This document shows positions 11,060 to 28,895 of a stretch of 64,000 bases of DNA, piece after piece (the first letter of the stretch is position 1; each line of letters begins with the position of its first letter). The stretch lies in contig DYGA01000001.1 of NCBI GenBank assembly GCA_020724865.1, positions 835-64,834 on the forward strand. The letters are read 5' to 3'. The translations under genes were made by a program, and so were the position numbers. The notes under the pieces are model-generated. The model saw only the letters and a program-made list of their open reading frames with translations, had not been told where the DNA came from and ran no database searches. The stretch comes from Candidatus Paceibacter sp. (GTDB lineage: Bacteria > Patescibacteriota > Patescibacteriia > S139-126).

Positions 11060-11372
11060 CTTGACAATATCAATAAATATTATAAAATTATTTATTATTC
11101 TTTAAAAAATTAATAGTCTGACTGCCGAATCAGACTTACACCGGTCACTCTGAATAATTTGAGAGCATACCTCACTCTCTCTTATTTTTCCGTGACCGGA
11201 GATTTTTCAAACAAGCTATACGATTTTCGTATAGAAAAAATAATAAACAAAAATATAAACAAAAAAAGGAGCGAACATGCGCTACAACAACAAATCTCCC
11301 TAAACCACTTTTTTAGTTTTTCGGCTAAAATAAATAAAATAATTTAATTAAAAACTAAAGAAGTGAGGTAAT

Positions 11373-11843
11373 ATGAAAAAGAGTGCTAATTCGGTTTTAA
11401 CCAAAAAAAAACCATTAGAAAAAAGAGTTTTATCTGCCAATGATATTGCTGAATTAAAAAAAATTATTGAAGATGAGATTAAAGAAATATTAAGCTTTAA
11501 TGAAAACAATTTAAAAGAAATATACAATGGCAATGGTTTGGCAAATGAAAACAATATAAGCGGAAACGCATTTGCCTTTGGGTCAGAAACCGAAAACATA
11601 CACACGTCAGTTATGTTAGCGGAACACGCTAATCGAGCCCTAAGAGGTAATCTAAACGCACTCAAACGTATTAATGAAGGAACCTACGGACTTTGTCCCA
11701 TTTGTGTAGCCAATAACCATGAAACTATTAAAGATAAAAATGATTGGGAGAAAGTAAAAAATAATCCCAATAATTATATCTCCTACCAAAGGTTAATGGC
11801 TTTCCCCACAGCAAAATACTGCATCAAACATGCAAAAAAATAA
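11373..11843 (+). CDS. DksA/TraR-like protein (coiled coil plus C-terminal Cys cluster; divergent spacing)
   Basis: NEGTYGLCPIC...YCIKH resembles the zinc-finger end of DksA/TraR; same GTYGLC motif as the 44449-44811 paralog. Confidence 0.45.
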   Translation: MKKSANSVLTKKKPLEKRVLSANDIAELKKIIEDEIKEILSFNENNLKEIYNGNGLANENNISGNAFAFGSETENIHTSVMLAEHANRALRGNLNALKRINEGTYGLCPICVANNHETIKDKNDWEKVKNNPNNYISYQRLMAFPTAKYCIKHAKK

Positions 11844-11945
11844 CTCACCAATTCAAGGATGCTTACCCAAAGCATCCTTTTTTAAATAAAAAAATAGTGT
11901 TAAAATTATTATATACTTAATTCTTTATACTTAAATACTAAAAAT

Positions 11946-12269
11946 ATGGGCATATTCAAAAATATTTTTGGTGGTGGCCAAATAAAAACTGGTTCGCAAC
12001 TAAACAAATCTTTTGGTCCAGATTCTTTACGCCAAAAACTTTCAGAGGCTAAAATCAAAGGCGGTTCACAAACTGCCAATCTTTCTAGTGCGGACTTAAA
12101 AAAATTTGAAAATATTATTGCCAAACACGCTAGCTATCTACCTCCGGGAGCTAAATTTTCCGATCATACTAAATACAAAATGCGCATGGAAGCTCATAAA
12201 CTTTTTAAACAAAATGAGATCTCTTGGGAAGATCTGAAAGATTTTGAAAAAATAGTTAAAGAGCTTTGA
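11946..12269 (+). CDS. Hypothetical protein
   Basis: ORF track only; Lys-rich, no recognizable motif. Confidence 0.35.
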   Translation: MGIFKNIFGGGQIKTGSQLNKSFGPDSLRQKLSEAKIKGGSQTANLSSADLKKFENIIAKHASYLPPGAKFSDHTKYKMRMEAHKLFKQNEISWEDLKDFEKIVKEL

Positions 12270-12315
12270 TTAGGAATTAGGAAATAAGATACAGGATTTA
12301 GGATATGGGACGTAG

Positions 12316-12348
12316 AAAAAAACTTCTTGTCAAATGACAAGGGGGATT
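12316..12348. terminator. Bidirectional intrinsic terminator (stem CTTGTCA/TGACAAG) serving radA (minus) and the 11946 ORF (plus)
   Basis: aaaaaaacttcttgtcaaatgacaagggggattttt; minus-strand read ends in TTTTTTT. Confidence 0.6.
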
Positions 12349-12504
12349 TTTAATTAATAATTTTTAATTACTAATTACTAATGAATGATAAAATTTATAA
12401 TTATATAATTAACAATTCATTAGTAATTCAAAATTAGTTATTAGTAATTAATAGTTTTATTATAAAAACAACTAAAAAATTTTATTATTAACAAAATAGT
12501 TTAT

Positions 12505-13860
12505 TTAATTATTAAAACTATCATTCACTGCTGCGAAAACATTTTCCACCTGAATTATATCAACTTTCTGACTGATAATTTTAATACTAGTTTTAGGAAT
12601 AATTATTTTTTTATAACCCATCCGACTGGCTTCTCTAACTCTTTGCTCCAATTGTATAGGTACTTTGACGTGTCCTGATAAGCTAACCTCACCAATAGCT
12701 ATGGTTGGTTCTGGAAATTCAATATTTTTTTTGGCAGAAACAATTGCCAAACACACCCCCAAATCAAGCCCAGTATCTTTGCTACTTATTCCTCCGGCTA
12801 AATTTATAAATACATCATCGCTACTTAAATAAATTTTGGCTCTTTTTTGTAATACCGCCAGTAACATTTCTACACGTTTATAATCAAGTCCGTTGATAGT
12901 TCTTTTAGGGTAACCAAAATTCGTATTGGAAGTAAGGGCTTGAATTTCCACCAAAAAGGCTCGACTGCCTTCCCACATTACCGAATGAATGGTACCAGGG
13001 CTAAACTGCTGACTTTGAATAAAAATTCCAGCCGGATCTTTGACTGGCTCAAGTCCACTTTTAACCATTTTAAATATTCCCACTTCACCAGTGGAGCCAA
13101 ACCGATTTTTCACTGACCGCAAAATACGAAATTGCTGTTGTTTATCACCTTCCAAATAAAGTACCACATCTACCAAATGTTCCATAGTCTTAGGGCCCGC
13201 TACTCGTCCCTGTTTGGTAACATGACCAATTAAAATAATACAAATATTATTTTGTTTGGCAGTTTCCATTAGTTTAGCTGCCACCGCTCTAACTTGCGAC
13301 ACTCCGCCCGCTTCAGTTTCAACTTCTTCATAAATCATAGTTTGTACCGAATCAATTACTGCCAAATCTGGCTTAAGTTTGGTTAAGGTAGCACAAATTG
13401 TTCCAATTTGATTATTGGCAATAAATTTCAGATTAGTAATATCAATTTTCATCCTTTCAACCCTACCTTTGACTTGTTCAGCTGATTCTTCACCCGATAC
13501 ATATAAAATTTTTTTTCCTTGTTTTGATAAATAATTAGTAATTTGTAAAACTAGAGTTGACTTTCCTACTCCTGGATCACCGCCAAGCAATAACAATGAA
13601 CCTGGTACTAATCCACCGCCTAATACTCTGTCTATCTCCAGTTCTCCAACTTTCAATCTTTGCATATTACCAGATGCGATTTTACTAAAATCAACAATAT
13701 CCGCCTCTCCGAGCGGACTAAATGTTGTACTTTCTTTTTTAGTTGTGCGACTACTAATTTCTTCAGCTTGCAATGTTCCCCAACTGCCACACTCTCTGCA
13801 CCTACCTTCCCATTTTTGAAATTGAGATCCACATTTAGAACAAGCAAAAATTTGTTTCAT
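12505..13860 (-). CDS. radA: DNA repair protein RadA/Sms
   Basis: N-terminal C4 zinc finger CSKCGSQFQKWEGRCRECGSWGTL; RecA-like Walker A GGDPGVGKSTL; Lon-protease-like C-terminal domain. Confidence 0.9.
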   Translation of the reverse strand: MKQIFACSKCGSQFQKWEGRCRECGSWGTLQAEEISSRTTKKESTTFSPLGEADIVDFSKIASGNMQRLKVGELEIDRVLGGGLVPGSLLLLGGDPGVGKSTLVLQITNYLSKQGKKILYVSGEESAEQVKGRVERMKIDITNLKFIANNQIGTICATLTKLKPDLAVIDSVQTMIYEEVETEAGGVSQVRAVAAKLMETAKQNNICIILIGHVTKQGRVAGPKTMEHLVDVVLYLEGDKQQQFRILRSVKNRFGSTGEVGIFKMVKSGLEPVKDPAGIFIQSQQFSPGTIHSVMWEGSRAFLVEIQALTSNTNFGYPKRTINGLDYKRVEMLLAVLQKRAKIYLSSDDVFINLAGGISSKDTGLDLGVCLAIVSAKKNIEFPEPTIAIGEVSLSGHVKVPIQLEQRVREASRMGYKKIIIPKTSIKIISQKVDIIQVENVFAAVNDSFNN

Positions 13861-13863
13861 AAT

Positions 13864-15321
13864 TTAGGGATTTTGAGTTAAACAATTATTATATATAGCC
13901 CACGCATCTCGCCCATATTCTTCTGCTGCTGGTCCACTACCATTGTATTTACGAAAACAATCTTGTGTCACATCTGCCGGACAAATTTCTTTCCACAAAT
14001 TTGTCACGGCATCAAGGTTTATATCTAATGTAAATAAACTTTTCGGATCATATAATTTACTGCCAATTTGCCTGCAGTGCGGAGCGCCGTTACAAGCAGG
14101 CCCATCAGGAAAAACTGTTATTTGTCCCAAACCAATACCGTGAGAAAAACGCCAATCTAAACCAAGATCAGCTCTATTCGGATTAACAACATCATCATCA
14201 TTTACAGCCGCACCAGTAATACTACAAACAGCGTTTGATTTTTTACCACTATACATTAAACATCCACTATTTACAAAATCACGACGTGATTTTATTCCCT
14301 CTTTTCGGACATCTTCATCATGACCTAAAGCATCTGCTCTACCTGAAGACTCTTTGGTAAAGAGCGTAGCTAAAACACAATAATGTATATTATTTGCCTG
14401 TGAAACTTGCTTCATAGAATTTTTCATATCTTCACTAAATGGTTTGACTAACCTAGTACCGGTAATTTTTTCATAAGCATCACTGCCAATTAAAGTTATA
14501 CCTTCAACTTCATCAATTTTTAAAGGATTAAAACCTACTAAATTTGGATTAATAAAATAAAGCACAGTATAAGAACTAACTACCAGCAAAAGACCAATTA
14601 TAGAATCACGAATGGTTTCTTTGGCTTTATTTATACCTTCCGCGCTACCAGCCGCTGCCAACCACTGCATCCCTCCAAATGCCATATAAGCCACAACAAC
14701 TACTCCAATTGCGCCAATTAACCAATTAAATAATAAGGCAATATATTTAGATAATAGTTCACCATTTACTTCTATACCTTGACCTTTATTGATAGTAAAA
14801 ACCTTTCCACCAAATTCAACTGAGCCGGGGATAGTGACTTGGGGAGTAAATTCTAATCTTTCAATTTTTTCTGGAGGCCTATATTCAGTACTCAAAAATG
14901 AACTTAAAACCTGACCTATGCCTTGACTACAATTTATTTCCTCACAAGTTTGACCATCAATATATTTTGTAATCGGAACATTGCACTGCTCTTGCGTAAT
15001 ATTACTAGTACAAGTTTCAATTTTTTCGTTATATGTATTTATTTTTATACAACAACTTTTTTTATCAAGCGGACAATTTGTATTTTCTTCACAAAAATTA
15101 CTATATATTGGGTAACCTTCAACTGGTTGATAGTTTGGTTCATGAACACCACAATAAAAATCACAGGCAACTTTATCAATATTTTGATTACCTAAACAAT
15201 TACTATTTGGTAAACACTTGCAACACCCTGCTTGTGCACTCACTGGCAAAAAAAATAACCCAAATAAAAAAATAGAACCAATCAAAAATTTTATCCTATA
15301 ATTTCTCATTGATAATTTCAC
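13864..15321 (-). CDS. Secreted Cys-rich protein with a conserved two-helix hydrophobic hairpin (VirB2/TrbC-like) and a C-terminal lytic-transglycosylase-like domain (VirB1-like)
   Basis: Signal peptide; ~20 Cys in the N-domain; hairpin GAIGVVVVAYMAFGGMQWLAAAGSAEGINKAKETIRDSIIGLLLVVSSYTVL nearly identical in pattern to the 17360-18802 protein; C-terminal LATLFTKESSG...SHGIGLGQIT matches the SLT family-1 ES...G[LI]GLMQ catalytic motifs. Confidence 0.5.
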   Translation of the reverse strand: MKLSMRNYRIKFLIGSIFLFGLFFLPVSAQAGCCKCLPNSNCLGNQNIDKVACDFYCGVHEPNYQPVEGYPIYSNFCEENTNCPLDKKSCCIKINTYNEKIETCTSNITQEQCNVPITKYIDGQTCEEINCSQGIGQVLSSFLSTEYRPPEKIERLEFTPQVTIPGSVEFGGKVFTINKGQGIEVNGELLSKYIALLFNWLIGAIGVVVVAYMAFGGMQWLAAAGSAEGINKAKETIRDSIIGLLLVVSSYTVLYFINPNLVGFNPLKIDEVEGITLIGSDAYEKITGTRLVKPFSEDMKNSMKQVSQANNIHYCVLATLFTKESSGRADALGHDEDVRKEGIKSRRDFVNSGCLMYSGKKSNAVCSITGAAVNDDDVVNPNRADLGLDWRFSHGIGLGQITVFPDGPACNGAPHCRQIGSKLYDPKSLFTLDINLDAVTNLWKEICPADVTQDCFRKYNGSGPAAEEYGRDAWAIYNNCLTQNP

Positions 15322-16012
15322 TTAATTCTTCGCTGGTAAATAAACCACGATAAGGCGTATTGTCAATAAAAAAATAAGGAACAGCATCAATCTCTAAATC
15401 AGTAGCCTCAATATTATTCTCATATACTTTATTTTCCATCTGACCTTCATTTAAACATGCGTTGAATTCATTTATTGATAAATTTAAAGCGGCGGCGATT
15501 GATTCTAAAAATTTTAAATCAATATTTGCTTGATTCATAAAAACCTCATGTTGATATTCCCAAAATTTTCCTTGAGCATTGGCACAATAAACTGCTTGTT
15601 GTGCCAGCATACCTTCATTGGTAGAAGCCGTGCCTTTCCAAACTAAACGTAATATTGTCTCTGGATAAATTGCCAACAACTTATAAATTTCATCTTGCTG
15701 TATTTTACACAAAGGACTAAATAAGTCACAATAATAAAAAATTGTTACTTTAGCGTTAGCGCTACCTCTTCTCACATCATCTGGCAATACCTTTGGATAT
15801 AAAATCTTAGCATCACGAATTAAAGGGTCATTATAACTAATTTTTGGTCCTGCTGCATATCTAACGCTGGCCGGGGTTATATTGGTATTGTTTAAATATT
15901 GAACAAAAATAAATAAAAAAATCGATAGAAAAAATAACCCAACAGCAGCAGAAAAAAATAACCAAATTGAAACTTTTGATTTAGATTTATTTTGTTTTGA
16001 TTTTTTAGGCAT
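15296..16012 (-). CDS. DsbA-like thioredoxin-fold thiol:disulfide oxidoreductase with a non-canonical active site
   Basis: N-terminal TM anchor; KVTIFYYCDLFSPLCK aligns to the DsbA/BdbD VTVVEFGDYKCPxCK region with SPLC in place of CPxC and an extra Cys 7 residues upstream; later VYCANAQGKFWEYQHEVF and cis-Pro-loop-like AVPYFFIDN fit the DsbA fold. Confidence 0.55.
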   Translation of the reverse strand: MPKKSKQNKSKSKVSIWLFFSAAVGLFFLSIFLFIFVQYLNNTNITPASVRYAAGPKISYNDPLIRDAKILYPKVLPDDVRRGSANAKVTIFYYCDLFSPLCKIQQDEIYKLLAIYPETILRLVWKGTASTNEGMLAQQAVYCANAQGKFWEYQHEVFMNQANIDLKFLESIAAALNLSINEFNACLNEGQMENKVYENNIEATDLEIDAVPYFFIDNTPYRGLFTSEELSEIINEKL

Positions 16013-16085
16013 AAATATTAAATTTTAAATTATTAATTATAAATTATAAATGAATTTTAAATGATAAATTTATAATTTATAATTT
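16013..16085 (-). promoter_or_regulatory. AT-rich promoter region with tandem TATAAT-like boxes (TTATAATTTATAATTTT); the same motif style recurs upstream of many genes here
   Basis: aaatgataaatttataatttataattttcaaag directly upstream of the 15296-16012 start; similar boxes at 21995-22068, 24930-25037, 37860-37960, 50221-50280. Confidence 0.3.
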
Positions 16086-17354
16086 TCAAAGATTAATACT
16101 ATAAAGCCCACCTGTTGCTTTATCAACAAAGTATAAAACACTTTGATCTTGAGAAACCATTACTTCGCTGGCAGTATACTTAGTTAGATCGCCAACTGGC
16201 TTGGCAAGCAGTGTTTTGGAACCAGTAGTCAAATCTATACGGTAAAATAAATCTGGTATATCATCTGCTACTTCAGGCACATAAGCTGCTCCCTCCGGCA
16301 AATATTCAGGAACAGCACAATATGCATTGGTTCCGGCAATAGCACATTTATCCAACCAAGTTTGAATACCAAGAGAATTGTTATTCATACCAATATTATC
16401 CCCATCGGCTCTAGTAACCCATAACATTGGTCTGGAACCTGACGCTTCAGAGTATATTTGATAAATTACATTCTTTCCATCATCTAACCATTCACCCTTA
16501 AAACCCCTGCCTTGAACGGTTAAAGATTTAAAATTTTCTCCATTTTGACCAATTAAATAAATTTCTGATTGATTTAAACCTCTGCCTTCTCTATAAAAAG
16601 CAATAACTTGATTATTCGGCGACCAAGCCACCTGGACATCTTCTCCAGCATTATTCATAGGCTCAACAAACTTAATTTCACTACCGTCCGGAGTTGCTAC
16701 ACCTAACCAATCATCATTGGCTAAATCTGACTGCCATTTAAAACCAATATTTGTTCCGGTGCGAGAAAAATCAAACTCTGTCATCTGCCTAGGTAGGGTC
16801 ACCTGCTTATCTTGAGTAAAATCATAATAAATATTGGTACTATCCGGATATTCCAAAATTGCCTTTTCACCATCAGGTGACCAGGTGACTGTATCAACAT
16901 TGAAAAATCTTTTATCAGATAAAGGTTGTACCTCACCACTGGCAGTCAAACGATAAAATTTATTGTCAGCTGAGTCGTAATAATTGAAACTTTTACCGTC
17001 ACCAATTGGTTTAACTCCAGTAATATTTTTAGCAATCACTGTTTTAGCAGTCGTAAGCCCACCAATTGCTCGATCACTAACCGTAGGTTGACCGCCTATT
17101 TGACCTGGAGTAGTTGGTATTTGTCCCCCAGATTGGCCGATATTGCCAGAAATTGGCAGTCCGGTAATTGGATCTATCACCACTCCTGTGGGTGGACCTT
17201 CACCAATATCAGGTAACTGACCAGTTTGACCAGGAGTGGTATCTGGTGGAGTAATAGGTACTTCTGTTCGCCAAAATAAAAACCACAGCAGATATCCCAG
17301 TCCTACAACAATTACTGTAAAAATAATAATTTGTATAATTTTTTTTCTGTCCAT
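16086..17354 (-). CDS. Membrane-anchored TolB-like beta-propeller (PD40 repeats) protein with Pro/Gly-rich linker
   Basis: N-terminal TM; PD40-type repeats WSPDGEKAILEY and AWSPNNQVIAFY. Confidence 0.5.
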   Translation of the reverse strand: MDRKKIIQIIIFTVIVVGLGYLLWFLFWRTEVPITPPDTTPGQTGQLPDIGEGPPTGVVIDPITGLPISGNIGQSGGQIPTTPGQIGGQPTVSDRAIGGLTTAKTVIAKNITGVKPIGDGKSFNYYDSADNKFYRLTASGEVQPLSDKRFFNVDTVTWSPDGEKAILEYPDSTNIYYDFTQDKQVTLPRQMTEFDFSRTGTNIGFKWQSDLANDDWLGVATPDGSEIKFVEPMNNAGEDVQVAWSPNNQVIAFYREGRGLNQSEIYLIGQNGENFKSLTVQGRGFKGEWLDDGKNVIYQIYSEASGSRPMLWVTRADGDNIGMNNNSLGIQTWLDKCAIAGTNAYCAVPEYLPEGAAYVPEVADDIPDLFYRIDLTTGSKTLLAKPVGDLTKYTASEVMVSQDQSVLYFVDKATGGLYSINL

Positions 17355-17359
17355 AATTA

Positions 17360-18802
17360 TTAAAATTCAGGCGTATAATAATTTAACATAAGTACCCAAC
17401 ATCTTTCACCAGTATCACAACTACCTCCAACTGGGGGATATTCAGCACAAGGTTTCTCTATCCAATAAAAGGGTGGAAAATCGTGATTAGGTAATGGGTT
17501 AGGTCTTATATAACCATTTAAAGAAATTGTTGTGGGCCTCTCAACAGAGCATTGTGATTGTTTACTTAATACACATATAGAATCAGTGCCTTTACCAGCT
17601 CTTGGTGAATCAGAACAAGTAACTTCTATTTGATTTGATGTTAGTGGATTTGGTACGCCGGTCGCCCAATATTTTAAAACTCTTGGACTTCCATTTTCCA
17701 AACAAATTTCCTGATTATTGTATTTTCCTTCGCTACAAGGTATACGATTAAAAGTATAATTATTCAATGATAATAAATTGGCGTCTTCTATATCAGTTAA
17801 TACACATTCATCTGGTTGCATAAAATCTAAAGATACAATAGGTATAAAAGCTACCCCAGCTTTTAATATATCATTACGAAAACTGCAAACTTTATTATCT
17901 ATTTCTGAAACATTAGATGCTTTTTGAATAGTCTGTAAATATTGATCAAATAACTCACAACTTGATGTATCTTGAGATTTACAACGTTCATTAAATCTAC
18001 TCAAATCAACACACTCAAAACCAGCATTAGATGAACCTGATGTGTTTAATTTAGCTAAACAATATGTCCCATCACCACATTTTAAACCCTGACAAGTATT
18101 ATTGGGATTAATTTCCGAATAATAAGTAAAATTACACCAAGTATCTTCTTTGTTTACTTTGGTTTTACTTTCATCGCCAACTTTTATCCATTTTTGCGAA
18201 CTTTCTGTATCCACACAATAGTTAAGCAAAAAATTGGGTTTAATTCTTTCTACTCTGATATAATCAATATTTACTAAACGTGAATTTATAGTGCCAAGTA
18301 ATACATAAGAACCAACTGCCAGTAGCAAACCTATAAAAGCACCTTGAATAGTATCTTTGGCTTTACCAATTTTTTCAGCGTTTCCCGCAGCCATCATCCA
18401 TTCAAACCCGCCCCATCCTATATAAGCCACAGTAATAATACCAATAACATAAATAAAATAGGTATAAATAACTTTTAAATAATCAGGAAATTGTGAAACT
18501 TTGGTTAAAGTTCCGCCACTTTGAATATCAGGAATCGGGACCGAAAGGTTTATCTCATCTGGCTTTAAATAACATTTGCCATACTGAATATTTTCACTAC
18601 CTTTACATTCTCTTTGAAAATCAGCATCGCCAACCACAAAAAAATAATTTTCCGTTTCACTGCCCGCTTGTCCCAAACATTGTTCCTGTGTCCAGCATTG
18701 GGCTGGTATGTTTTGAGCTAAAACAACTTCAACTAAACCAAAACTAAATAAGGTTAAAAATGTTATAACAAATATTATTTTATATATATTCCACTTATTC
18801 AT
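17360..18802 (-). CDS. Secreted Cys-rich protein with VirB2/TrbC-like hydrophobic hairpin (paralog of the N-terminal part of 13864-15321)
   Basis: Signal peptide; >25 Cys; hairpin YFIYVIGIITVAYIGWGGFEWMMAAGNAEKIGKAKDTIQGAFIGLLLAVGSYVLL shares the motif VAY.xxGGxxWxxAAGxAExIxKAKxTI...IGLLLxVxSY with the 485-aa protein. Confidence 0.45.
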   Translation of the reverse strand: MNKWNIYKIIFVITFLTLFSFGLVEVVLAQNIPAQCWTQEQCLGQAGSETENYFFVVGDADFQRECKGSENIQYGKCYLKPDEINLSVPIPDIQSGGTLTKVSQFPDYLKVIYTYFIYVIGIITVAYIGWGGFEWMMAAGNAEKIGKAKDTIQGAFIGLLLAVGSYVLLGTINSRLVNIDYIRVERIKPNFLLNYCVDTESSQKWIKVGDESKTKVNKEDTWCNFTYYSEINPNNTCQGLKCGDGTYCLAKLNTSGSSNAGFECVDLSRFNERCKSQDTSSCELFDQYLQTIQKASNVSEIDNKVCSFRNDILKAGVAFIPIVSLDFMQPDECVLTDIEDANLLSLNNYTFNRIPCSEGKYNNQEICLENGSPRVLKYWATGVPNPLTSNQIEVTCSDSPRAGKGTDSICVLSKQSQCSVERPTTISLNGYIRPNPLPNHDFPPFYWIEKPCAEYPPVGGSCDTGERCWVLMLNYYTPEF

Positions 18803-18803
18803 T

Positions 18804-19373
18804 TTATTTTTTATTCATTTTGCCAATCCCAACATATAAAACACTAATTGACCACCAGGGGATAATACCAGTAAAAGGCAATATTTCAAGGACAGGGGCA
18901 ATAAAACCTACGACTTTTTTCTTTCCAGCATTATGCATAAACAAATATGTCCAAAGTAGCCCTCCAACTATAATATCTATAATCCAATCTAACCACCACA
19001 CCGTCTCAAATGAAGCGACGTCAAATACATCTTTTACCCCAGCTGCTATTATCATAAAATACCACATTATGCCTACTTGTAAAAAACCCCCTCCTAAAAA
19101 ATTTACCCCAATATCTTTAGCGCCCTTGGCTATATTTATCGCACCAGCGACTTTATTGCCCGCAGCAATCTGAGCAGCTCCTTTACTTATTTGTCTAGTA
19201 CTTTTACTTAAATCTTTGGCTCTCTTTAAAAGTCCAGCCTGTTCTTGTCCATTAGCGACATTTTGATTATCAATCCTATTTCTAGACAGCATCTCATCCA
19301 TACCTTGAGAACGAGAACTACGAATACGCTGTCTGTTTAATTCACGCTTATAATTATTCTCATTTTCAACCAT
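18804..19373 (-). CDS. Hypothetical polytopic membrane protein
   Basis: ORF track; three or four hydrophobic helices; 1-nt spacing from the upstream gene suggests one operon. Confidence 0.4.
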   Translation of the reverse strand: MVENENNYKRELNRQRIRSSRSQGMDEMLSRNRIDNQNVANGQEQAGLLKRAKDLSKSTRQISKGAAQIAAGNKVAGAINIAKGAKDIGVNFLGGGFLQVGIMWYFMIIAAGVKDVFDVASFETVWWLDWIIDIIVGGLLWTYLFMHNAGKKKVVGFIAPVLEILPFTGIIPWWSISVLYVGIGKMNKK

Positions 19374-19380
19374 AATTAAT

Positions 19381-19968
19381 TTATTTTTTTTCTGGACCGA
19401 TATTAAAATCTGCTACCAACCAAACACCATTATCTTTTACTAACTGTAAGGTAATATCTTGATAAAAAATTCTTTCGTTCCCACCACTAACCTCTCTTTT
19501 TTGCGTCTTAACTAAAACCACTGCTGAATTATTGGTCTGATTTTCAACATTAACTGCTAAAGTTTTCGTACTTAAGGCATAACTTTCTTTCACTTGTTTA
19601 GTGCTAGATCGTAAACTTTGTAAATCAGAATAAATGCTGTTCGTCACTACGCTTTTTATATCATCAATATTTTGCCAAGCGGCACTATCAGAAAAACTGC
19701 CATATCTTTCTACAAAATATCTACTAGTGTTAACTATTGAAGCATAGTCACCTATTTCTTCTTCTGACTTACCAGATATTTGTTGAGATAAAGTATCTTG
19801 AACTTGCTGATCCTGAGTAGAATTCACATCTGATTGTTCAATAATAACTGGGGGCTCACTGGATAAGGGTTGCTCTCTATTTTGCCACCACCACCAACCT
19901 AAAAAACCGCCGACTATCAGTACTAAAACAAACAGTATTATAAGTAATTTTTTTATTCTTGGATTCAT
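19381..19968 (-). CDS. Bitopic membrane protein, candidate VirB8-like component (N-terminal TM plus ~150-aa extracytoplasmic domain)
   Basis: Topology and size fit VirB8/TcpC-like proteins; sits immediately downstream of the VirB4 ATPase gene; no sequence motif confirmed. Confidence 0.3.
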   Translation of the reverse strand: MNPRIKKLLIILFVLVLIVGGFLGWWWWQNREQPLSSEPPVIIEQSDVNSTQDQQVQDTLSQQISGKSEEEIGDYASIVNTSRYFVERYGSFSDSAAWQNIDDIKSVVTNSIYSDLQSLRSSTKQVKESYALSTKTLAVNVENQTNNSAVVLVKTQKREVSGGNERIFYQDITLQLVKDNGVWLVADFNIGPEKK

Positions 19969-19976
19969 ATTTTATA

Positions 19977-20062
19977 AGGATTAGGATTTAGGATATAGGA
20001 TATAGTAGTGGTATATTAATTTATTTTTTTATTCCTCGACCCTAAATCCTATATCCTATGTC
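19977..20062. repeat. Inverted pair of TTAGGAT-type heptad arrays (ggatttaggatataggatatag ... cctaaatcctatatcctatgtcc) forming an imperfect long hairpin between two T4SS-like genes
   Basis: Related arrays at 12269-12312, 21971-22058, 22751-22822, 23273-23310, 23701-23732. Confidence 0.55.
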
Positions 20063-20067
20063 CTAAA

Positions 20068-21960
20068 TTAAATATCCATCTCCTCAGCTTGATTTTGCTG
20101 ACGATTAAACTCCCTTTTTGCTTCTTCGATTTCCAACAACTGCTTGGGGTCGGAAGTAATGAGCTGATCTTCTGTATAGGAAGCGACAATTTTTATAGCT
20201 GCATGCTTGGACCCAGCAAAAAAAATCCCTTCGCCCACGCCGCATTCAAGCAATAGATATTTTTCCCCTTCAGTCAACATAAATGTTTTTTTCACGACAT
20301 CAATGGATGCGGGTGATTGTTTAAGTAACAGCTGCAAAGACGAGTTGGTAACGATTGCCTGACCATAAGGGCTACGTAAAAAATCATTGACATCTTGGGT
20401 TATAGTAGTTACTCCCAAATAATATTTTCGACAACGTTTTACCAAAGCATAGATAAACTTGGCACTATCATCATTTTGCATTAGCCACCAAGCTTCATCA
20501 ATAACCAATATTCTCTTTTTAAGTTCTGATCTTACTATATTCCAAATATAATTAACAATGGTATAAATCGCTATGGGCCTTAATTCATCTTCCAAATCTC
20601 TGACCGAAAAGGTTATCAACTGATTGTTCAAATCAATATTGGTTGGACTATTGAAAAGCCCTGAAAATGTACCTTCTGTATATTTTTTTAAACGCAAAAC
20701 CAAATCATCTCCTCCTTCCATGCCAGATAAAACTTCTTCAAAATCTGACATTAATGGTGTTTCCACGTGAGTCAAATCAGAAGTTGGCGTAATATCTTTT
20801 TTAGCATAAGTTTCAAGTAAGGCACGATCAATAATTGAATCCTCCTGATGGGTAAGATTCCCTAACATCAAACGCATTAACCCCTTCAAGGTAATAACTG
20901 CACTCCGAATAATATCGGCTGGTTTCATATCATCAACCTTACGAGGCAAATCAAATGGATTTATTTTACTGTCACTAGACAAAGAAATATTTATATAAGT
21001 CCCGCCGACAGCATCTGATAAATGTTTGTATTCTTTTTCGGGGTCAATAATAATTACATCGGTTCCCATCATCAAACTGCGTAAAACTTCAAGTTTGATA
21101 GCATAACTTTTACCAGCGCCAGAAGTAGCAAAAACAACCGAATTAGCATTTTGTAAAGAAAATCTATCAAATAAAATCAAACTATTATTATGTCGATTAA
21201 TACCATATAATATTCCTTCATCACTAGTAAGTTCTGAGGATATAAACGGAAAAGACGATGCCACCGGTGAAGAATTCATATTGAAAGAAATCATCAACTC
21301 ATCATTACCCAAGGGTAAGGTGGAATTAAACCCCTGTTCAGCTTGATATAATGTTCTTTTTGTATAAACTAACTTGCTACCAAAAAGCGATTCAATTTTT
21401 TCAGTCAAATTATCAAGTTCTTCTTTGGAATTGGCGTACATAGTTACATACAACGCGTATTGGAAAAACTTTTCTATACCTTGAGTTAAGTCGTCACGCA
21501 ATTTTTCAATATCTTGCAGGGCCGTTTCTCGGATAGGATCACGGGGAGCGCCTTTTTCCGCATCAGCAATCAATTGTGCTTCCAAAACGCCAACTTTATT
21601 TTTCAATTGCTTTAAAACAACCTCAGCTGGAATCGGATAAAAAAACATACCAATATCCATAGTCGCGGAATAATTTATTACTGGCGCAAACCAACCAACT
21701 GAAATATAACGCGGATAATTAATAACAAATATTGTCCGCACAAATTTTGAACCTAACTCCAAATAAGATGGAGTTACTTTAAAAGCAGCCGGAGCAATAA
21801 TATCTCGAATTTTTACCGTACCTTCACGAAATACTTTTTCTGCCTCCAATAGTTGTTTTTCATCCAAAGTTCTTTCCACCTCAATTTCTGCCTGTTCACG
21901 ACGAGAAAGTATCTGTTTAACTGGTCTATTCTTTTGTATGGCTTGTTTGGGATTAAACAT
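20068..21960 (-). CDS. virB4: VirB4/TrbE-family type IV secretion ATPase, C-terminal ATPase portion
   Basis: Walker A VVFATSGAGKSYAIK; Walker B RILVIDEAWWLMQ; overall VirB4/CagE architecture lacking the usual N-terminal domain. Confidence 0.8.
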   Translation of the reverse strand: MFNPKQAIQKNRPVKQILSRREQAEIEVERTLDEKQLLEAEKVFREGTVKIRDIIAPAAFKVTPSYLELGSKFVRTIFVINYPRYISVGWFAPVINYSATMDIGMFFYPIPAEVVLKQLKNKVGVLEAQLIADAEKGAPRDPIRETALQDIEKLRDDLTQGIEKFFQYALYVTMYANSKEELDNLTEKIESLFGSKLVYTKRTLYQAEQGFNSTLPLGNDELMISFNMNSSPVASSFPFISSELTSDEGILYGINRHNNSLILFDRFSLQNANSVVFATSGAGKSYAIKLEVLRSLMMGTDVIIIDPEKEYKHLSDAVGGTYINISLSSDSKINPFDLPRKVDDMKPADIIRSAVITLKGLMRLMLGNLTHQEDSIIDRALLETYAKKDITPTSDLTHVETPLMSDFEEVLSGMEGGDDLVLRLKKYTEGTFSGLFNSPTNIDLNNQLITFSVRDLEDELRPIAIYTIVNYIWNIVRSELKKRILVIDEAWWLMQNDDSAKFIYALVKRCRKYYLGVTTITQDVNDFLRSPYGQAIVTNSSLQLLLKQSPASIDVVKKTFMLTEGEKYLLLECGVGEGIFFAGSKHAAIKIVASYTEDQLITSDPKQLLEIEEAKREFNRQQNQAEEMDI

Positions 21961-22068
21961 AGAAATTAAAATATAGAATCTAGAATTTAAGATATAGGGA
22001 TTAGGATAAAATAATTTTATAATTTATAATTTTCAAACTATATCCTAAACTCTCTATTGTAAATACTG

Positions 22069-22746
22069 TTAACTGGTTCTTAATTTATTAACATCAACTA
22101 ATTTTTGCTGTTCATAAACATCTAAATTGTAAGTATTATAATACAATTCTATCAAACTTTGAGTATCCAATTTAACTGAGGTCAATCCAATGCTGGCTAA
22201 ATTGGACATCACAAAATCAACTCGTTTTTCCAACAATTCTAAATATTGTTCATACTTTTTCTTTTGCAAAGAGATTACCCGAGCCGGAGAGAAAATCGCG
22301 GAAAATCTTTTTATAAAACTTGGTTTTTCAACATTTATTCCTCCATAAGGCACCACCACATAGAAACGTTTGCTCATAATTTCCCCCAATTCAACCAACT
22401 CTTTGACATACTCACGATAATCACTAATTTGAGCGCGCAATAATTCATTGGTCAACATCCGTTCGCGCTGTGCTAACTGCTCCAAATAAAAATCTATATT
22501 CAATTTGCGAGATTGAATAACAATTTGCAAAGGAAAATCTAGAGCATTCAAAAAACTAACATACGCTGCAATGGTAGCATTCTGTTCATCTTCTGATTTT
22601 AAAGCAAAATTGATTGAAGAAACCAACAATACCGCCCGTAAAGTGCCGTCTTTCAAAACAACTGAATCATTTTTAATCTCAGCAATATCTAAATACTGCT
22701 GAGTTGAAATAAGAACTTTTTTATTGGCTAATTTTTTTGATTTCAT
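22069..22746 (-). CDS. VirB4 N-terminal-domain-like protein (probable split-off N-terminal part of VirB4)
   Basis: VVLKDGTLRAVLLVSSINFALKSEDEQNATIAAYVSFLNALDFPLQIVIQS resembles the conserved start of VirB4/TrbE (..kdGsl...f.l.G.d....deel...); encoded directly upstream of the ATPase portion. Confidence 0.45.
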   Translation of the reverse strand: MKSKKLANKKVLISTQQYLDIAEIKNDSVVLKDGTLRAVLLVSSINFALKSEDEQNATIAAYVSFLNALDFPLQIVIQSRKLNIDFYLEQLAQRERMLTNELLRAQISDYREYVKELVELGEIMSKRFYVVVPYGGINVEKPSFIKRFSAIFSPARVISLQKKKYEQYLELLEKRVDFVMSNLASIGLTSVKLDTQSLIELYYNTYNLDVYEQQKLVDVNKLRTS

Positions 22747-26426: not shown

Positions 26427-28895
26427 TTAAAAATGTTCTTCGGGACTTTCACTGCTATTTGGCGGAATTTTTGCTTCTTTGCCGTAACTTATTAATAAAT
26501 CATGAATAAGTGGAATAGTTTTATTTTGGGTATCAATACTCCTTTTAATATCATTTAATACGGAAACTAGGCTTTGATTGGTTGCTTCATCTGACAGTAT
26601 TTGATTAACTGTTTTTGTTTTATCTGAAGAAATTTTTTCTTTAACCAGCTCTTCAATTTTATCTTCTTGTTTATTTTCTAATACAGATTTGACTAACTGC
26701 TCTACTTCTGCCTCATCAGTTAGACCATAACCATGAATCTTCTCACGTATAGTTGCTTCTTTAAAATCACTTTCACTATATCCGCGACTACTAGAATTGA
26801 CTAGGTTTAAATTTTTTAAATTTTTTGAATCTTTTAAACGCTCTTTGGCTTTTTCTAAATTTTTTATTTCATTTTCCTTTCCGCCTTTGGTTTTTAACTC
26901 TTTAATCTGACCATCCAATAATTGAACTAAAGCTTTCGCAACATCTTTTAAATCATTTTTATTTTGAATACTTATACTTTTAACTTTACTGGGGTCGCCA
27001 GTTTTACCTTTCAATAAATCCAATTTTTCAAAATTTTTATTATCAAAATCAACTGCTAAAACATTTGCTTTTTCACTGGCAAAATCATCTACTTCTAAAT
27101 TTCCAGGTCCCTTTTTCAAATCCAATTCTTCTTTTGCAACATCACGATAATGATTTAGATGGTTTCCGGTTCTTGACATTCTATCTAGATCTGCTGGTAA
27201 AATTGCTCGACCAAACACAGGATCGCCTGGTTTATTCAAATCACCAGCTAAAATTTTTCCGTTTTCATCAATACCGGCAATTTTAATGTCATTAAAACCA
27301 GAATAATGGGCTCCCGAATTGTATAATCCCCTGCGATATCTATTTCTTGACAATGCATCTTCATGCTTAGTTCCTCTTAAATCAATACCGCTGTTACCAA
27401 GATTATAAATTTCTTCATCGCTTAATCTGGCAAAATCATCAGCGTCCATTTTGGCTAAATATTCTCTAGCTAAAGTTTTATCCTTTATTAAAGAGGGTGC
27501 TTTTCTTCTCATCACATCTCTACGTACAGAAGGTATTTTACTGTTGACAAAACGCTGTAATATACGAGGGTCATTAATCGAGCCATAAATATCGTTGACT
27601 TTTTTTCTATCAGCCGCTCTTTTATTTTCTGCCATAGCTAGAGCTTTTGTTGCTAAAGTATTTAGACCAATAATCTTTGATCCTCCAATAGCACCCAAAA
27701 CATTTCTTACTCCTTCACTGCGGCTCAAATAGCCACCCAATTGTCCAGCTGCTTTACCTGGCGCTTCTTTCGTTTTTTTCACAGCCCAACCAACTGCGGC
27801 TGCGCCCGTACCAAGCATAGCTGCCCGCGTTCCCCATTTTTGTACTTTTTGAGCAAAATTACCTACTGCTCCACCAGATTGAGCGGCAATTTTTTGTGAA
27901 ATTGCTAGCCCTCCCAATAGTAATGCCAATACTACTATATAATTTAAAATTACACTTTGATCTACATTGGACGGAATAATTTGAGACATTTGACTTTTTA
28001 ACTCCCCGGTTCCTTGAGAAGAAAATTTATTTGCTATATCGCCTTGCTGCATAGTGAGTAAAGCTAACCACAAAAAGAAAGCTATTACGGGACCAGAAAT
28101 AAGATGTTGGAAAAACATTTGCCACCATTGCGACCAATAATTTGGTTTAAAGGCATAAGCCAAATATGCCAATGGCGAAATAATTACCAATACCCAAAGC
28201 ATAGTAATACGCCACATCAAAACAGCAATCATCACCAATATCACCATATCAGCTACCAATATCATCACAACTGCCAAAGCTGCTGCTACGACTAAACCTT
28301 CTTGAAAACCTGAAACGTCAGACGCCCATACTCCCTGTGAAAGCATTTCATAGATACCTAAACCTTGTGCTAAATTTCCACCTGCTACGTCTTTAAAACC
28401 ATTAACAAAGGTCAACATAATTACTTGAAAAAAATCTATCAAAAACCCGGCGATGAGTTTAGAAAAATTTACCAAAATTGCCATGATTAACAACTTGGTA
28501 AGTGTTTTTTGATAATGATATGAGCTTATTTTAAGAACAGTAGAAAAAGCAATTATCAACAGAACCACAATAAAGAACATATTAGCTATATCCCGAGCCA
28601 AACCCCAACCAGTAGCAACCATCGGCATATCAATAAAATTATTGAATTTAGCTAATTCAATCATTATGCCCACAAAAAATACAAATAAAACTCCTAAAAA
28701 TCTTACTACTAATAAAAATATTGCTGTTAACAAATCACTAGCAAATTTTAAAGGGTCAGAAAAACCCTCCCAAATAGCACTAAAGACACTTGCTGAAACA
28801 TAATTGGTAATAAAAAATACACCCACTACGACAAATAGAAAAGTAAAAAGTAAATTGGTTTTGTTTTGTATCAATTGCCTAATTTTTTTTGGCAT
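26427..28895 (-). CDS. VirB6/TrbL-like polytopic membrane protein with long hydrophilic C-terminal tail
   Basis: ~350-aa N-terminal region with 6 or more TM helices rich in Trp/Gly/Ala, as in TrbL/VirB6; then a ~450-aa charged, coiled-coil-prone extension as in Gram-positive VirB6 homologs. Confidence 0.5.
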   Translation of the reverse strand: MPKKIRQLIQNKTNLLFTFLFVVVGVFFITNYVSASVFSAIWEGFSDPLKFASDLLTAIFLLVVRFLGVLFVFFVGIMIELAKFNNFIDMPMVATGWGLARDIANMFFIVVLLIIAFSTVLKISSYHYQKTLTKLLIMAILVNFSKLIAGFLIDFFQVIMLTFVNGFKDVAGGNLAQGLGIYEMLSQGVWASDVSGFQEGLVVAAALAVVMILVADMVILVMIAVLMWRITMLWVLVIISPLAYLAYAFKPNYWSQWWQMFFQHLISGPVIAFFLWLALLTMQQGDIANKFSSQGTGELKSQMSQIIPSNVDQSVILNYIVVLALLLGGLAISQKIAAQSGGAVGNFAQKVQKWGTRAAMLGTGAAAVGWAVKKTKEAPGKAAGQLGGYLSRSEGVRNVLGAIGGSKIIGLNTLATKALAMAENKRAADRKKVNDIYGSINDPRILQRFVNSKIPSVRRDVMRRKAPSLIKDKTLAREYLAKMDADDFARLSDEEIYNLGNSGIDLRGTKHEDALSRNRYRRGLYNSGAHYSGFNDIKIAGIDENGKILAGDLNKPGDPVFGRAILPADLDRMSRTGNHLNHYRDVAKEELDLKKGPGNLEVDDFASEKANVLAVDFDNKNFEKLDLLKGKTGDPSKVKSISIQNKNDLKDVAKALVQLLDGQIKELKTKGGKENEIKNLEKAKERLKDSKNLKNLNLVNSSSRGYSESDFKEATIREKIHGYGLTDEAEVEQLVKSVLENKQEDKIEELVKEKISSDKTKTVNQILSDEATNQSLVSVLNDIKRSIDTQNKTIPLIHDLLISYGKEAKIPPNSSESPEEHF

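Follow-up and report, generated by a model that had tools for sequence, protein, structure and literature searches.

A pilin-type hairpin inside two large secreted proteins

What is a hydrophobic hairpin of pilin type doing in the middle of two large, cysteine-rich proteins encoded within a T4SS locus? The two genes, here called A and B, lie in a 64,000-nucleotide stretch of DNA (the window), where both minus-strand ORFs were found at exactly the coordinates given by the first-pass annotation (Table 1). The start of protein A is likely ATG 15309, since the MxxYx[IL]K N-terminus of the protein is kept in homologues and a contig that matches the window at 100% identity has a gene call of 481 aa here; the cluster of protein A also includes a 481-aa member. 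As had been proposed, both proteins open with a putative signal peptide, read off the sequence as basic residues followed by a hydrophobic segment and an AxA-like site (VSAQA/G in A and VVLA/QN in B). In A, the AG-CC right after this segment is conserved among homologues, and cleavage may occur at a signal-peptidase I site or at a lipobox-like one.

Table 1. Features of the locus in window coordinates
Feature	Position	Strand	Basis
Gene of protein A; 481 aa from the probable start ATG 15309, 485 aa as the longest ORF (GTG 15321)	13864..15321	-	
A: predicted signal peptide, aa 5-31, MRNYRIKFLIGSIFLFGLFFLPVSAQA	15229..15309	-	Read from sequence, hydrophobicity
A: variable Cys-rich N-module, aa 32-156, 14 Cys, strain-variable cassette	14854..15228	-	
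A: conserved linker, aa 157-186, FTPQVTIPGS...GQGIEVNGE	14764..14853	-	Invariant columns in homologue alignment A4
A: VirB2-like pilin hairpin, aa 187-264	14530..14763	-	PF18895, NF045849, AF2, HMM matches
A: predicted C-terminal GH23 (SLT/goose-lysozyme-like) module, aa 265-485, 8 Cys, strain-variable cassette	13867..14529	-	
Membrane-anchored DsbA-like thioredoxin-fold protein, 238 aa, between the A and B genes	15296..16012	-	PF13462 E=1e-14; PF01323 E=2.4e-9
422-aa protein: N-terminal TM helix, Gly/Pro-rich linker, PD40/TolB-like beta-propeller; conserved operon member	16086..17354	-	
Protein B gene, 480 aa	17360..18802	-	
B: VirB2-like pilin hairpin, aa 105-178	18269..18490	-	PF18895 aa 109-170, 26.2 bits; NF045849 E=7.6e-6; HMM E=9e-24
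B: conserved Cys-rich C1 sub-domain, aa 179-293, 8 Cys	17924..18268	-	
B: variable beta-rich Cys-rich C2 module, aa 294-480, 10 Cys, strain-variable cassette	17363..17923	-	
Two small membrane proteins between VirB4 and B: 189 aa, polytopic; 195 aa, N-terminal TM helix and soluble domain	18804..19968	-	
VirB4-type T4SS ATPase, 630 aa	20068..21960	-	PF19044 E=1.9e-30; AAA_10, DUF87
TrsD/TraC-like protein, 225 aa, resembles VirB4 N-terminal region	22069..22746	-	NF045975 E=2.1e-9; NF041427 TrsD E=1.3e-5
PrgI/VirB3-like protein, 150 aa	22817..23269	-	PF12666 E=3.5e-7, above gathering cutoff
Polytopic membrane protein, 822 aa, candidate VirB6-like channel subunit	26427..28895	-	

A pair of long hydrophobic helices is present in both proteins (aa 187-256 in A and 107-176 in B), and the annotated motif VAY..GG..W..AAG.AE.I.KAK.TI...IGLLL.V.SY occurs in each. 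In A the helices span 187-222 and 227-256 around the loop GSAEGINKAK, and the hairpin terminates in INPNLVGF; its AF2 pLDDT is about 80, and the N-module is poorly modelled. The hairpins had been called near-identical and the proteins paralogous, but pairwise alignment gave 42% identity over 81 aa (E=5e-20), which makes the hairpins similar, and the remainder of A and B does not align, so that paralogy holds for the hairpin only. The 22 cysteines of each protein agree with the 20-25 expected of each N-terminal ectodomain in total but not in placement, as A has 14 in its N-module and 8 in its C-module, whereas in B only 4 precede the hairpin and 18 follow it. Thus A runs from the signal peptide through the Cys-rich N-module, the linker (the left-hand limit of the core conserved in the strain comparison) and the hairpin to the GH23 module, and B from the signal peptide through a small 4-Cys N-module and the hairpin to C1 and C2. 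Among relatives of B, C1 is 78-98% identical while C2 is only 34-40% identical. C2 matched no known fold and the variable module of B gave no enzyme signal in any search; protein B is probably an adhesin.

The T4SS locus and the family of the hairpin

The A and B genes stand in the same operon as VirB4, TrsD and PrgI and only a few genes away from them. The synteny of this locus is identical in three related loci (L001, L002 and L008), the order of the 189-aa and 195-aa membrane protein genes is conserved, and the DsbA-like gene keeps its position in L001-L003 and L008; on L008 the gene identical to our TrsD/TraC-like gene is annotated as PF26593 TraC-like. We list the 195-aa membrane protein as a VirB8-like candidate. 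HMM searches with the 822-aa protein found no match; it shares 28% identity over 190 aa (E=2e-7) with a large polytopic protein adjoining the pilin array of a Saccharibacteria MAG, and we regard it as a candidate VirB6-like channel subunit. By gene content, the locus is a chromosomal T4SS of Patescibacteria type (PrgI, TrsD, VirB4, candidate VirB6), and the bacterium is probably an ultra-small, Patescibacteria-like one. No rRNA gene is present in the 64-kb window.

The PF18895 (T4SS_pilin) scores of the two hairpins sit at the threshold (26.7 bits for A, over aa 196-257 with E=5.8e-6, and 26.2 for B, against a gathering cutoff of 26.6), and 23 of 23 relatives of A matched this profile. Both hairpins also cover 67-70 positions of the 80-position model NF045849 (Mbov_0395 pilin-like conjugal transfer protein), with E values of 1.4e-4 and 7.6e-6, both under its 40-bit family cutoff. 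An HMM built from 120 small Patescibacteria pilins picked A and B (E 1e-21 and 1e-24) and no other ORF of the window, and across the hairpin HMMs only these two were found in the 64 kb, at E 1e-21 to 1e-38, the next ORF having E>=0.05. A profile search with the hairpin recovered at least 3754 proteins; the best 120 of them are all 73-142 aa long, which bears out the earlier remark that hairpins embedded in large ectodomain proteins are non-canonical, and 61 of these 120 also carry PF04956. The motif GG..W...KAK..I..GL is common to thousands of T4SS-linked pilins. On this profile evidence the hairpins of A and B belong to the VirB2-like pilin family of Patescibacteria (PF18895). The proposed VirB2/TrbC likeness therefore stands as a T4SS pilin-type module, but the link to PF04956 is transitive, as neither protein matches that profile directly. 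VirB2 in the PDB was reached only at E=2.1, which is not significant. It may be noted that helical hairpins yield non-specific structural matches.

This chromosomal T4SS locus encodes no VirB2-like (PF18895) subunit besides A and B. HMM searches for a small pilin gene found none in the window nor, in relatives, within +/-10 kb, and the lineage may therefore lack a filament.

A GH23 enzyme fused to the hairpin

The SLT-like motifs reported for protein A are all present (KESSG 323-327, GIGLGQIT 395-402 with GLGQIT at 397-402, and YNGSG 459-463), with Glu324-Ser325 as the predicted catalytic residues. The SLT assignment itself holds as a GH23/SLT-type domain, but again transitively, since PF01464 does not match A directly: four homologues (P0017-20) reach the PF01464 gathering score, and the C-domain of A alone aligns with one of them (P0017) at 31% identity over 222 aa (E=3e-26). 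A profile built from 135 representatives of the family matched MltC (9e-5), MltE, Slt70, EtgA and goose lysozymes, that is, GH23 proteins only, and aligned its ESGGNP with the catalytic ES of MltE/MltC. Also, the best 26 matches of the C-domain in a Foldseek search of the PDB were all GH23 (best E=0.035, probability 0.99). A ~65-residue insertion separates the ES motif from GLxQ. The C-module of A is thus assigned by homology to a divergent GH23 lysozyme/lytic-transglycosylase domain with a predicted catalytic Glu-Ser, which would make A in effect a VirB2-VirB1 fusion. The predicted fusion of hairpin and GH23 is widespread, occurring in hundreds of clusters at 50% identity (523 representatives at E<=1e-30), and the hairpin is followed by GH23 in 127 of 135 representatives checked. 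Therefore, the suggestion of a new family was not upheld: the fusion is common, and PF18895 pilins beside VirB4 in Patescibacteria have already been published (PMC12102498, PMC10633639).

Exchange of ectodomain cassettes between strains

The most informative feature, new in this analysis and invisible from a single window, is the exchange of ectodomain cassettes at strain level. Strain loci that are 99.6-100% identical to the window differ from it in ectodomain-coding segments only. One of them (L008) is 99.6-99.99% identical except at 13866-14528 and 17360-17921; here, as in L009, an M15 peptidase replaces the GH23 module of A, directly after F264 and through the stop codon, and the next gene, radA, resumes at 99.98% identity. 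Another (L017) differs only at 14852-15220, where the N-module of A is a 34%-identical allele between flanks of 96.6-100% identity. The boundary of this module at 14851/14852 is seen again in L001 and L003, and cassette boundaries are the same in genomes only 75-80% identical. Replacement alleles of the A N-module and the B C-terminal module are 32-34% identical. Alternative C-modules of A among relatives are M15, VanY, M15_4, C39_2, NlpC/P60 and SLT_3, those of more distant relatives being C39-like, NlpC/P60 or SLT_3. Both forms are seen repeatedly: independent assemblies from at least 3 samples contain the M15 variant (the L008 contig in 2 samples, and SRR17771284), and at least 4 runs (L011, L012, L014 and L016) yielded the window-type sequence at 100% identity. 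The comparison of these predicted modules reveals exchangeable cassettes on a conserved hairpin scaffold, with near-clonal replacement by other peptidoglycan-hydrolase classes (A C-module) or by highly divergent alleles (A N-module and B C2). Such exchange between near-identical strains suggests that the outer modules face the host, an epibiont/host reading that draws on gene content only.

Proposed function and alternative explanations

The cysteine count is even in every module and odd only in cysteine-peptidase modules; together with the DsbA-like gene in the operon this points to extracytoplasmic disulfide folding, and the DsbA-like protein is probably the oxidase for the 44 ectodomain cysteines of A and B. 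Since the flanks are Cys-rich and one of them is a wall hydrolase, both would sit on the outer side of the membrane and the KAK loop would point to the cytoplasm, which is the VirB2 topology. We consider it somewhat likely that A and B are pilin-scaffolded, disulfide-stabilised, outward-facing T4SS modules under diversifying selection, one a VirB2-VirB1 fusion and the other a probable adhesin. The signal peptides would export both proteins, and the hairpin would dock to or enter the T4SS surface structure, where A and B would be minor subunits, tip subunits or a short conduit, comparable to the VgrG/PAAR proteins with fused effector domains of type VI secretion. With the modules directed outward, B C2 may recognise the partner cell and the enzyme of A may breach peptidoglycan where the cells touch; cassette exchange would then follow differences between target surfaces or walls, or reflect an arms race with the target. 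In known VirB2/TraA pili the subunits are tightly packed, and globular domains of ~200 aa at both ends of a subunit look sterically incompatible with such packing.

A tentative alternative is that neither protein leaves the membrane, the hairpin being a two-pass anchor or docking element, A the system's own VirB1/PrgK-type hydrolase that opens the producer wall locally for assembly, and B an ectoprotein with a structural or scaffolding role. Since the producer's own wall is a possible substrate of any peptidoglycan hydrolase, swapped enzymes are no proof of a foreign target, and the missing local small pilin fits a membrane-bound role. Literature cited in PMC12102498 describes the Gram-positive VirB1 analogues PrgK, TraG (pIP501) and TcpG as membrane-anchored multidomain hydrolases in T4SS operons; VirB1 is not recognisable in most Patescibacteria with VirB2-like genes (PMC12102498), a gap that the fusion would fill. 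Yet strains 99.6-100% identical at the locus, presumably with the same wall, carry different enzyme classes, non-enzymatic modules also occur as 32-34%-identical alleles, a pattern expected of surfaces that meet a variable external partner, and the anchor is specifically a pilin-family hairpin instead of any TM segment.

The sharp swapping of non-homologous C-terminal modules right after INPxLVGF on an otherwise identical chassis, every alternative being a wall-degrading enzyme, recalls the toxin swapping of Rhs/CDI/T6SS effectors and the bacteria-killing T4SS of Xanthomonas. The N-terminal part with the hairpin would then be a trafficking domain, and the hydrolase would be cleaved off and delivered by the T4SS to kill or lyse competitors or prey. 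We find this unlikely, as the swap stops at the stop codon before radA with no co-varying immunity gene, the Sec signal peptide and disulfide-rich folding mean that the module has left the cell ahead of any T4SS step, no cleavage motif was found, and the variable module of B is not an enzyme by any search. The first-pass annotation had also allowed for a generic TM anchor lacking PF04956 and SLT hits. On such a reading, A and B would be secreted enzymes or adhesins of an ordinary kind, with no tie to the T4SS. Neither profile matched directly, the Pfam scores are borderline and structural matches of helical hairpins are non-specific, but the A-B alignment, the family HMM values confined to two ORFs of the 64 kb, the motif shared with T4SS-linked pilins and the place near VirB4 kept in several genomes mark the hairpin as specifically pilin-family, and we hold a coincidental anchor to be very improbable.

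Comparison with known systems

A and B resemble VirB2/TrbC/TraA (PF04956; A. tumefaciens T-pilin, F-pilin) in the signal peptide, two long hydrophobic helices, short basic loop and outside termini, and about half of the small hairpin relatives also carry PF04956; they differ in lacking a direct match to it, in their large fused ectodomains and in the apparently monoderm cell. The Mycoplasma ICE Mbov_0395 family, matched by both hairpins below its cutoff, likewise pairs a monoderm T4SS with a VirB2-like protein, but its members are small and stand-alone. With VirB1, PrgK (pCF10), TraG (pIP501) and TcpG, protein A shares a membrane-tethered GH23/SLT-type catalytic domain within a T4SS operon. 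These are held by a single N-terminal TM helix, and PrgK, TraG and TcpG join several hydrolase types (SLT plus CHAP), whereas A is anchored by a pilin hairpin, carries the GH23 insertion, is missed by PF01464 and has an enzyme module interchangeable between strains. 'Evolved' VgrG/PAAR/Hcp proteins of type VI secretion and polymorphic toxins offer an analogy of logic only, a conserved structural subunit with a swapped C-terminal enzyme, peptidoglycan hydrolases being frequent cargo; A and B belong to another secretion machine, with Sec-dependent export and no co-varying immunity gene, and their N-terminal and non-enzymatic modules vary too.

The closest relatives are the PF18895 pilins of Patescibacteria (SEML1_0014-0019 of Southlakia epibionticum ML1), of the same hairpin family. 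According to PMC12102498 and PMC10633639 these also have a signal peptide, a VirB4/PrgI/TrsD/VirB6 cluster and high diversity between copies. Known pilins of this group are about 100-185 aa long, in arrays of 2-11 genes, and vary by tandem paralogues, whereas here just two proteins of about 480 aa each, with N-modules of 75-155 aa and C-modules of 220-300 aa, one of them enzymatic, vary by cassette exchange. In the same two papers, epibiotic growth of a Saccharibacterium requires the T4SS and its pilins, and lysozyme-like and M15B-like genes adjoin virB4 (PMC10633639, PMC12102498). In S. epibionticum these are SEML1_0006 (two lysozyme-like domains and a cysteine proteinase) and SEML1_0007 (M15B-like), reported essential for epibiotic growth. 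The same enzyme types, lysozyme-like, M15 peptidase and cysteine peptidase, thus accompany the Patescibacteria T4SS in both cases, there as separate genes without PF18895 annotation and in the window lineage one at a time, fused to a pilin hairpin.

Gene context of the locus

The minus strand of the window carries an uninterrupted string of genes that runs through those of a type IV secretion system (T4SS) and of proteins A and B to radA. The genes around it are housekeeping genes (recG, leuS, ksgA, pnp, comM and one for a ClpC-type ATPase), so the T4SS locus is chromosomal. Its genes follow the PrgI-TrsD-VirB4-VirB6-VirB2 pattern that PMC12102498 reports for Patescibacteria, and the genes of both proteins with the two-helix hairpin lie, as for PF18895-type pilins, close to virB4, PrgI, TrsD and VirB6-like genes, a synteny conserved in the relatives. 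As the window has no rRNA and only four tRNAs were found in it by Rfam and ARAGORN, taxonomy was inferred from gene content. The MAGs closest at species level, those of loci L001, L002, L003 and L005, are Patescibacteria-like in content, with a monoderm-type PrgI/TrsD/VirB4 T4SS, PF18895 pilins and ~33% GC, and also encode a ClpC-type ATPase with a UVR motif. Positions 9296-22012 recur at 100% nucleotide identity in contigs of at least four runs (SRR5011275, SRR5011273, ERR15459720 and SRR6488387), and the source organism is thus recurrent in public metagenomes.

Features of the T4SS locus and its surroundings (window coordinates)
Feature	Position	Strand	Remarks
tRNA-Arg, anticodon GCG	8679-8753	+	
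radA		-	last of the gene string, directly after A
Protein A, maximal ORF 485 aa	13864-15321	-	
Segment of A differing in L008	13866-14528		
INPxLV/INSRLV segment	14530-14553	-	directly after helix 2
Segment of A differing in L017	14852-15220		
Mature N-terminus of A	15226-15240	-	invariant A-G-C-C (SAQ↓AGCC)
DsbA-like thioredoxin-fold protein	15296-16012	-	PF13462, E=1e-14
PD40/TolB-like propeller protein	16086-17354	-	TM-anchored, Gly/Pro-rich linker
Protein B, 480 aa	17360-18802	-	
Segment of B differing in L008	17360-17921		
INPxLV/INSRLV segment	18272-18289	-	directly after helix 2
Two small membrane proteins, 195 and 189 aa		-	between VirB4 and B
VirB4-type ATPase	20068-21960	-	PF19044, E=1.9e-30
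TrsD/TraC-like protein, 225 aa	22069-22746	-	NF045975 and NF041427
PrgI/VirB3	22817-23269	-	PF12666, E=3.5e-7
Two proteins, 440 and 391 aa		-	between the 822-aa protein and PrgI; without family match
Polytopic membrane protein, 822 aa	26427-28895	-	candidate VirB6
Cys-rich protein, 2358 aa	29013-36089	-	signal/anchor segment; CBM_4_9 carbohydrate-binding domain, E=6.6e-6
LysM-LysM-Peptidase_M23 wall hydrolase	41123-42421	+	E=4e-32

Encoded just upstream of the candidate VirB6 gene, the very cysteine-rich 2358-aa protein may serve this apparatus as an adhesin. In all related loci the propeller protein is kept between the genes of the two pilin-like proteins, and a TolB-like propeller is puzzling in an apparently monoderm T4SS operon. 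The tRNA-Arg may be a lineage marker, CGN codons being decoded in most bacteria by ACG(ICG)/CCG tRNAs. The LysM-LysM-Peptidase_M23 hydrolase is a separate gene 20 kb off; some 'VirB1' homologues of Patescibacteria are reported to combine the same domains (PMC12102498).

Modules of proteins A and B

The first-pass annotation described A and B as paralogous, disulfide-rich secreted proteins whose N-terminal ectodomains precede a shared hairpin. Pairwise alignment does relate the two, at 42% identity (E=5e-20), but only over the 81 residues of the hairpin, and nothing else aligns. Each has 22 cysteines, differently placed, A having 14 before and 8 after the hairpin and B 4 before and 18 after. 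Each starts with a signal peptide, as judged by eye, followed by a pair of long hydrophobic helices that a short loop joins (motif GG..W ... KAK..I..GL). The start of A is probably the ATG at 15309, giving 481 aa; the N-terminal MxxYx[IL]K is conserved among homologues, a contig with 100% identity to the window has a 481-aa gene called there, and a 481-aa cluster member also exists. At the mature N-terminus, SAQ↓AGCC may mark cleavage by signal peptidase I or an atypical lipobox whose Cys is at +1.

The cysteine count is even in every module (14 and 8 in A; 4, 8 and 10 in B), and among relatives with a conserved chassis odd counts occur only in cysteine-peptidase modules (9, 9, 7 and 9 in C39_2; 13 in NlpC/P60), where they fit one free catalytic thiol besides paired cysteines. 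Together with the DsbA-like protein of the operon, the even counts support the reading that the modules of A and B are independently folding, disulfide-bonded and extracellular. It may be noted that the DsbA-like protein has C-x6-C (YYCDL[FL]SPLC, conserved in 7 related sequences) in place of the expected CxxC, and that two more conserved cysteines and the cis-Pro region (A[VL]PYFF) are still there.

Family of the shared hairpin

The hairpin belongs to the PF18895 (T4SS_pilin) family, though at the margin for the two proteins themselves: A scores 26.7 bits, barely above the cutoff of 26.6, and B 26.2 bits, 0.4 below it. The same model matches all 23 relatives of A (best E=5.8e-10), and both hairpins match, below its cutoff, the NCBIfam model for the 'pilin-like conjugal transfer protein' of Mycoplasma ICEs. 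A hairpin profile retrieved at least 3754 proteins; the best 120 of these are all of 73-142 aa, and 61 of the 120 are annotated with both PF18895 and PF04956 (TrbC/VirB2). An HMM built from these 120 small members gave E=1.6e-21 for A and E=8.9e-24 for B; no further ORF of the window matched it, nor did any in the 10 kb on either side in three related genomes. Arrays of 5-7 small pilins occur instead in Falkowbacteria, Saccharibacteria and another Patescibacteria MAG. PF04956 itself gave no match to A or B at E<=0.1 and E of 0.015-1.5 for the database relatives P0017-20. The hairpin profile reached the VirB2 structure 8exh in the PDB only at E=2.1 and a 122-sequence profile reached none, a phmmer search of A and B against PDB sequences gave nothing relevant, and Pfam and NCBIfam scans of the window proteins found no SLT, TrbC or VirB1 family. 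In the AF2 models each hairpin consists of two helices, 30-36 residues long. Since both flanks are Cys-rich and one is a wall hydrolase, they would be extracytoplasmic, which would give A and B the N-out, loop-in, C-out topology of VirB2. The description 'VirB2/TrbC-like' in the earlier annotation therefore holds through PF18895 membership, the PF18895/PF04956 overlap in the small relatives, topology and gene context, but not through a direct PF04956 match.

Directly after helix 2 lies an INPxLV/INSRLV segment that is conserved in the A family, the B family and P0017-22 and absent from the small pilins that stand alone, whose sequence stops at this point; the boundary at which the A C-module recombines falls on this segment. 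At two loci of other Patescibacteria, the first gene of a small-pilin array is an intermediate form of 241-244 aa, with a Cys-rich C-terminal extension in L006 (9800-10534) and an N-terminal extension in L007 (9491-10216), which suggests that plain pilins grade into the large fused ones.

The C-terminal module of protein A

The SLT-like motifs quoted for A are present (KESSG 323-327, GIGLGQIT 395-402 and YNGSG 459-463), but PF01464 (SLT) does not match A, even with the isolated C-domain at E<=10. The link is made through relatives: the C-domain is 31% identical to P0017 over 222 aa (E=3e-26), and P0017-P0020 score 24.6-34.9 bits against a PF01464 cutoff of 21.3. Against the PDB a 10-sequence C-domain profile found nothing and only a profile of 135 family representatives reached GH23 structures, namely MltC (9.2e-5), MltE (5.5e-4), Slt70, the T3SS transglycosylase EtgA, goose-type lysozymes and also a phage tape-measure protein, all 20 matches being GH23. 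The family motif ESGGNPNAiG lines up with the catalytic Glu-Ser of MltE (IESGGNPNA) and MltC, and GiGLxQ and YNGG with the later SLT motifs; E324 is invariant in the A family and S325 nearly so. In the AF2 model (pLDDT 80-92) the top 26 Foldseek matches in the PDB are all goose-type lysozymes or MltE/LtgA/Slt, though weak (E 0.035-2, TM on target 0.41-0.51). Unlike classical SLT domains, the A family has ~65 extra residues inserted after the ES motif and before GLxQ, with invariant GHDE, NDD and DLGLDWRFSH, and because of this insertion the PF01464 model misses the family; given its invariant Asp residues, the enzyme may be a muramidase or a transglycosylase. By homology, the C-module of A is thus a GH23 enzyme, so that the 'VirB1-like lytic transglycosylase' is upheld as to its GH23 family, at the level of the family profile, though not by PF01464. 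Overall, the first-pass annotation had observed largely correctly and interpreted partly so: pilin hairpin and GH23 domain stand, whereas the proteins are not a new family.

When the A-family profile was run against all 1.84 billion cluster representatives, 50,513 matched at E<=1e-3, and 523 of these at E<=1e-30. Among them the best 150 representatives are of 280-930 aa and mostly matched from the hairpin to the C-terminus. On counting the domain layout of 135 such representatives by local HMM scoring, we found the hairpin in all 135 and a GH23-like domain after it in 127, behind N-terminal regions of 0-598 aa. As judged from these layouts, the hairpin+GH23 architecture is widespread, and it is not discussed in the searchable literature. 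In Southlakia epibionticum, lysozyme-like/cysteine-proteinase and M15B-like genes adjoin virB4, separate from the small pilins. The pilin family of A and B and the T4SS locus type are already known and the fusion is common in databases; its reading as VirB2-VirB1, the alternative hydrolase modules and the strain-level exchange of cassettes are not described in the searchable literature.

Exchange of ectodomain cassettes between strains

Contigs with an identical DsbA-like protein were retrieved and compared to the window by blastn. Four of them (L011, L012, L014 and L016) are 100% identical to it and show no difference. L008, a 33-kb contig seen in 2 samples (the same variant is also in SRR17771284), is 99.6-99.99% identical over 17 kb except for two segments. 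The first runs in A from just past F264 to the stop, where an M15/LAS metallopeptidase with its SxHxxGxAxD and ExxH motifs replaces the GH23 domain; the second runs in B from residue 294 to the stop, where the variable C2 module is replaced by a 32-34%-identical allele. In L017, whose two flanks are 96.6% and 100% identical, the N-module of A is replaced by a 34%-identical allele. In strains 99.6-100% identical across the locus, only ectodomain cassettes of A and B differ. The same three boundaries recur in L001-L003, genomes only 75-80% identical, and the modules combine freely across the database relatives of A: identities for N-module, hairpin and C-module are 34%, 97% and 96% in P0002 and 25%, 95% and 85% in P0004, while P0005 (100% and 98%) and P0008 (94% and 89%) have an unrelated C-module. 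The alternative C-modules (M15, VanY, M15_4, C39_2, NlpC/P60 and SLT_3) are all wall hydrolases. A tblastn search of the 64-kb window found no silent or donor copies of alternative cassettes. Assembly chimerism was considered as the cause of the differences and rejected, as each variant recurs in independently assembled samples and the boundaries are the same in distant genomes.

Proposed role and its alternatives

We propose that the hairpin fixes A and B to the surface structure of the T4SS, or makes them part of it, with their modules outward; the enzyme of A would open peptidoglycan at contact with a partner cell, and the variable C2 of B, which is beta-rich and confidently modelled with no fold match in the PDB, would recognise that cell. 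The main rival explanation takes the hairpin for no more than an anchor, and A for an autolysin with which the machine acts on the wall of its own cell. But the non-enzymatic modules are extremely divergent and the enzyme class switches between 99.6-100%-identical strains, which argues for, though does not prove, an external and variable target. As to how such an outward display would be built, subunits of this size make a full homopolymeric pilus sterically doubtful, and A and B may more plausibly be minor or tip subunits or form a short conduit. Small pilins appear to be absent nearby. Even for small PF18895 pilins, assembly into an extracellular T4SS pilus is unproven by experiment (PMC12857230, PMC11665869). 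We hold it possible, though rather unlikely, that the T4SS displays a wall-breaching enzyme and a host-recognition domain on VirB2-type subunits, as an 'armed' pilus or conduit that strains re-tool by recombination of ectodomain cassettes across the conserved hairpin, with the host range or wall specificity of an ultra-small epibiont residing in three swappable modules.

The question bears on the function of the essential Patescibacteria T4SS, whose role has been stated to be completely unknown (PMC11665869), and an 'armed' pilus would be the first concrete mechanistic handle on it. It would also explain why most Patescibacteria appear without VirB1, as reported for most genomes with VirB2-like pilins (PMC12102498). 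The hairpin itself is fused to a divergent yet very common GH23 domain, and elsewhere to other wall hydrolases; the usual VirB1/SLT models miss this GH23 domain, and part of the 'missing' VirB1 is thus probably hidden inside pilin genes. Variation confined to the cassettes points to a surface under selection, which makes these modules candidate determinants of host recognition and wall penetration.

Comparison with known systems

Like the T4SS-dedicated hydrolases of VirB1 type, A is encoded inside the T4SS locus and carries a GH23 module. Whereas the small PF18895 pilins are of ~100-185 aa and often in tandem arrays, A and B are of 481 and 480 aa, and neither the window nor the flanking sequence of the relatives contains another copy. 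As in polymorphic toxins, the C-module is swapped among close relatives on a conserved N-terminal chassis; those systems, however, have a co-varying cognate immunity gene directly downstream, and the A locus has none. No immunity-like gene co-varies here, as the variable segment of A stops at the stop codon, and radA, starting 3-9 nt after A, is 99.98% identical between variants. A and its relatives also show, in a system other than type VI secretion, a modular design in which a structural subunit carries a swappable enzyme.
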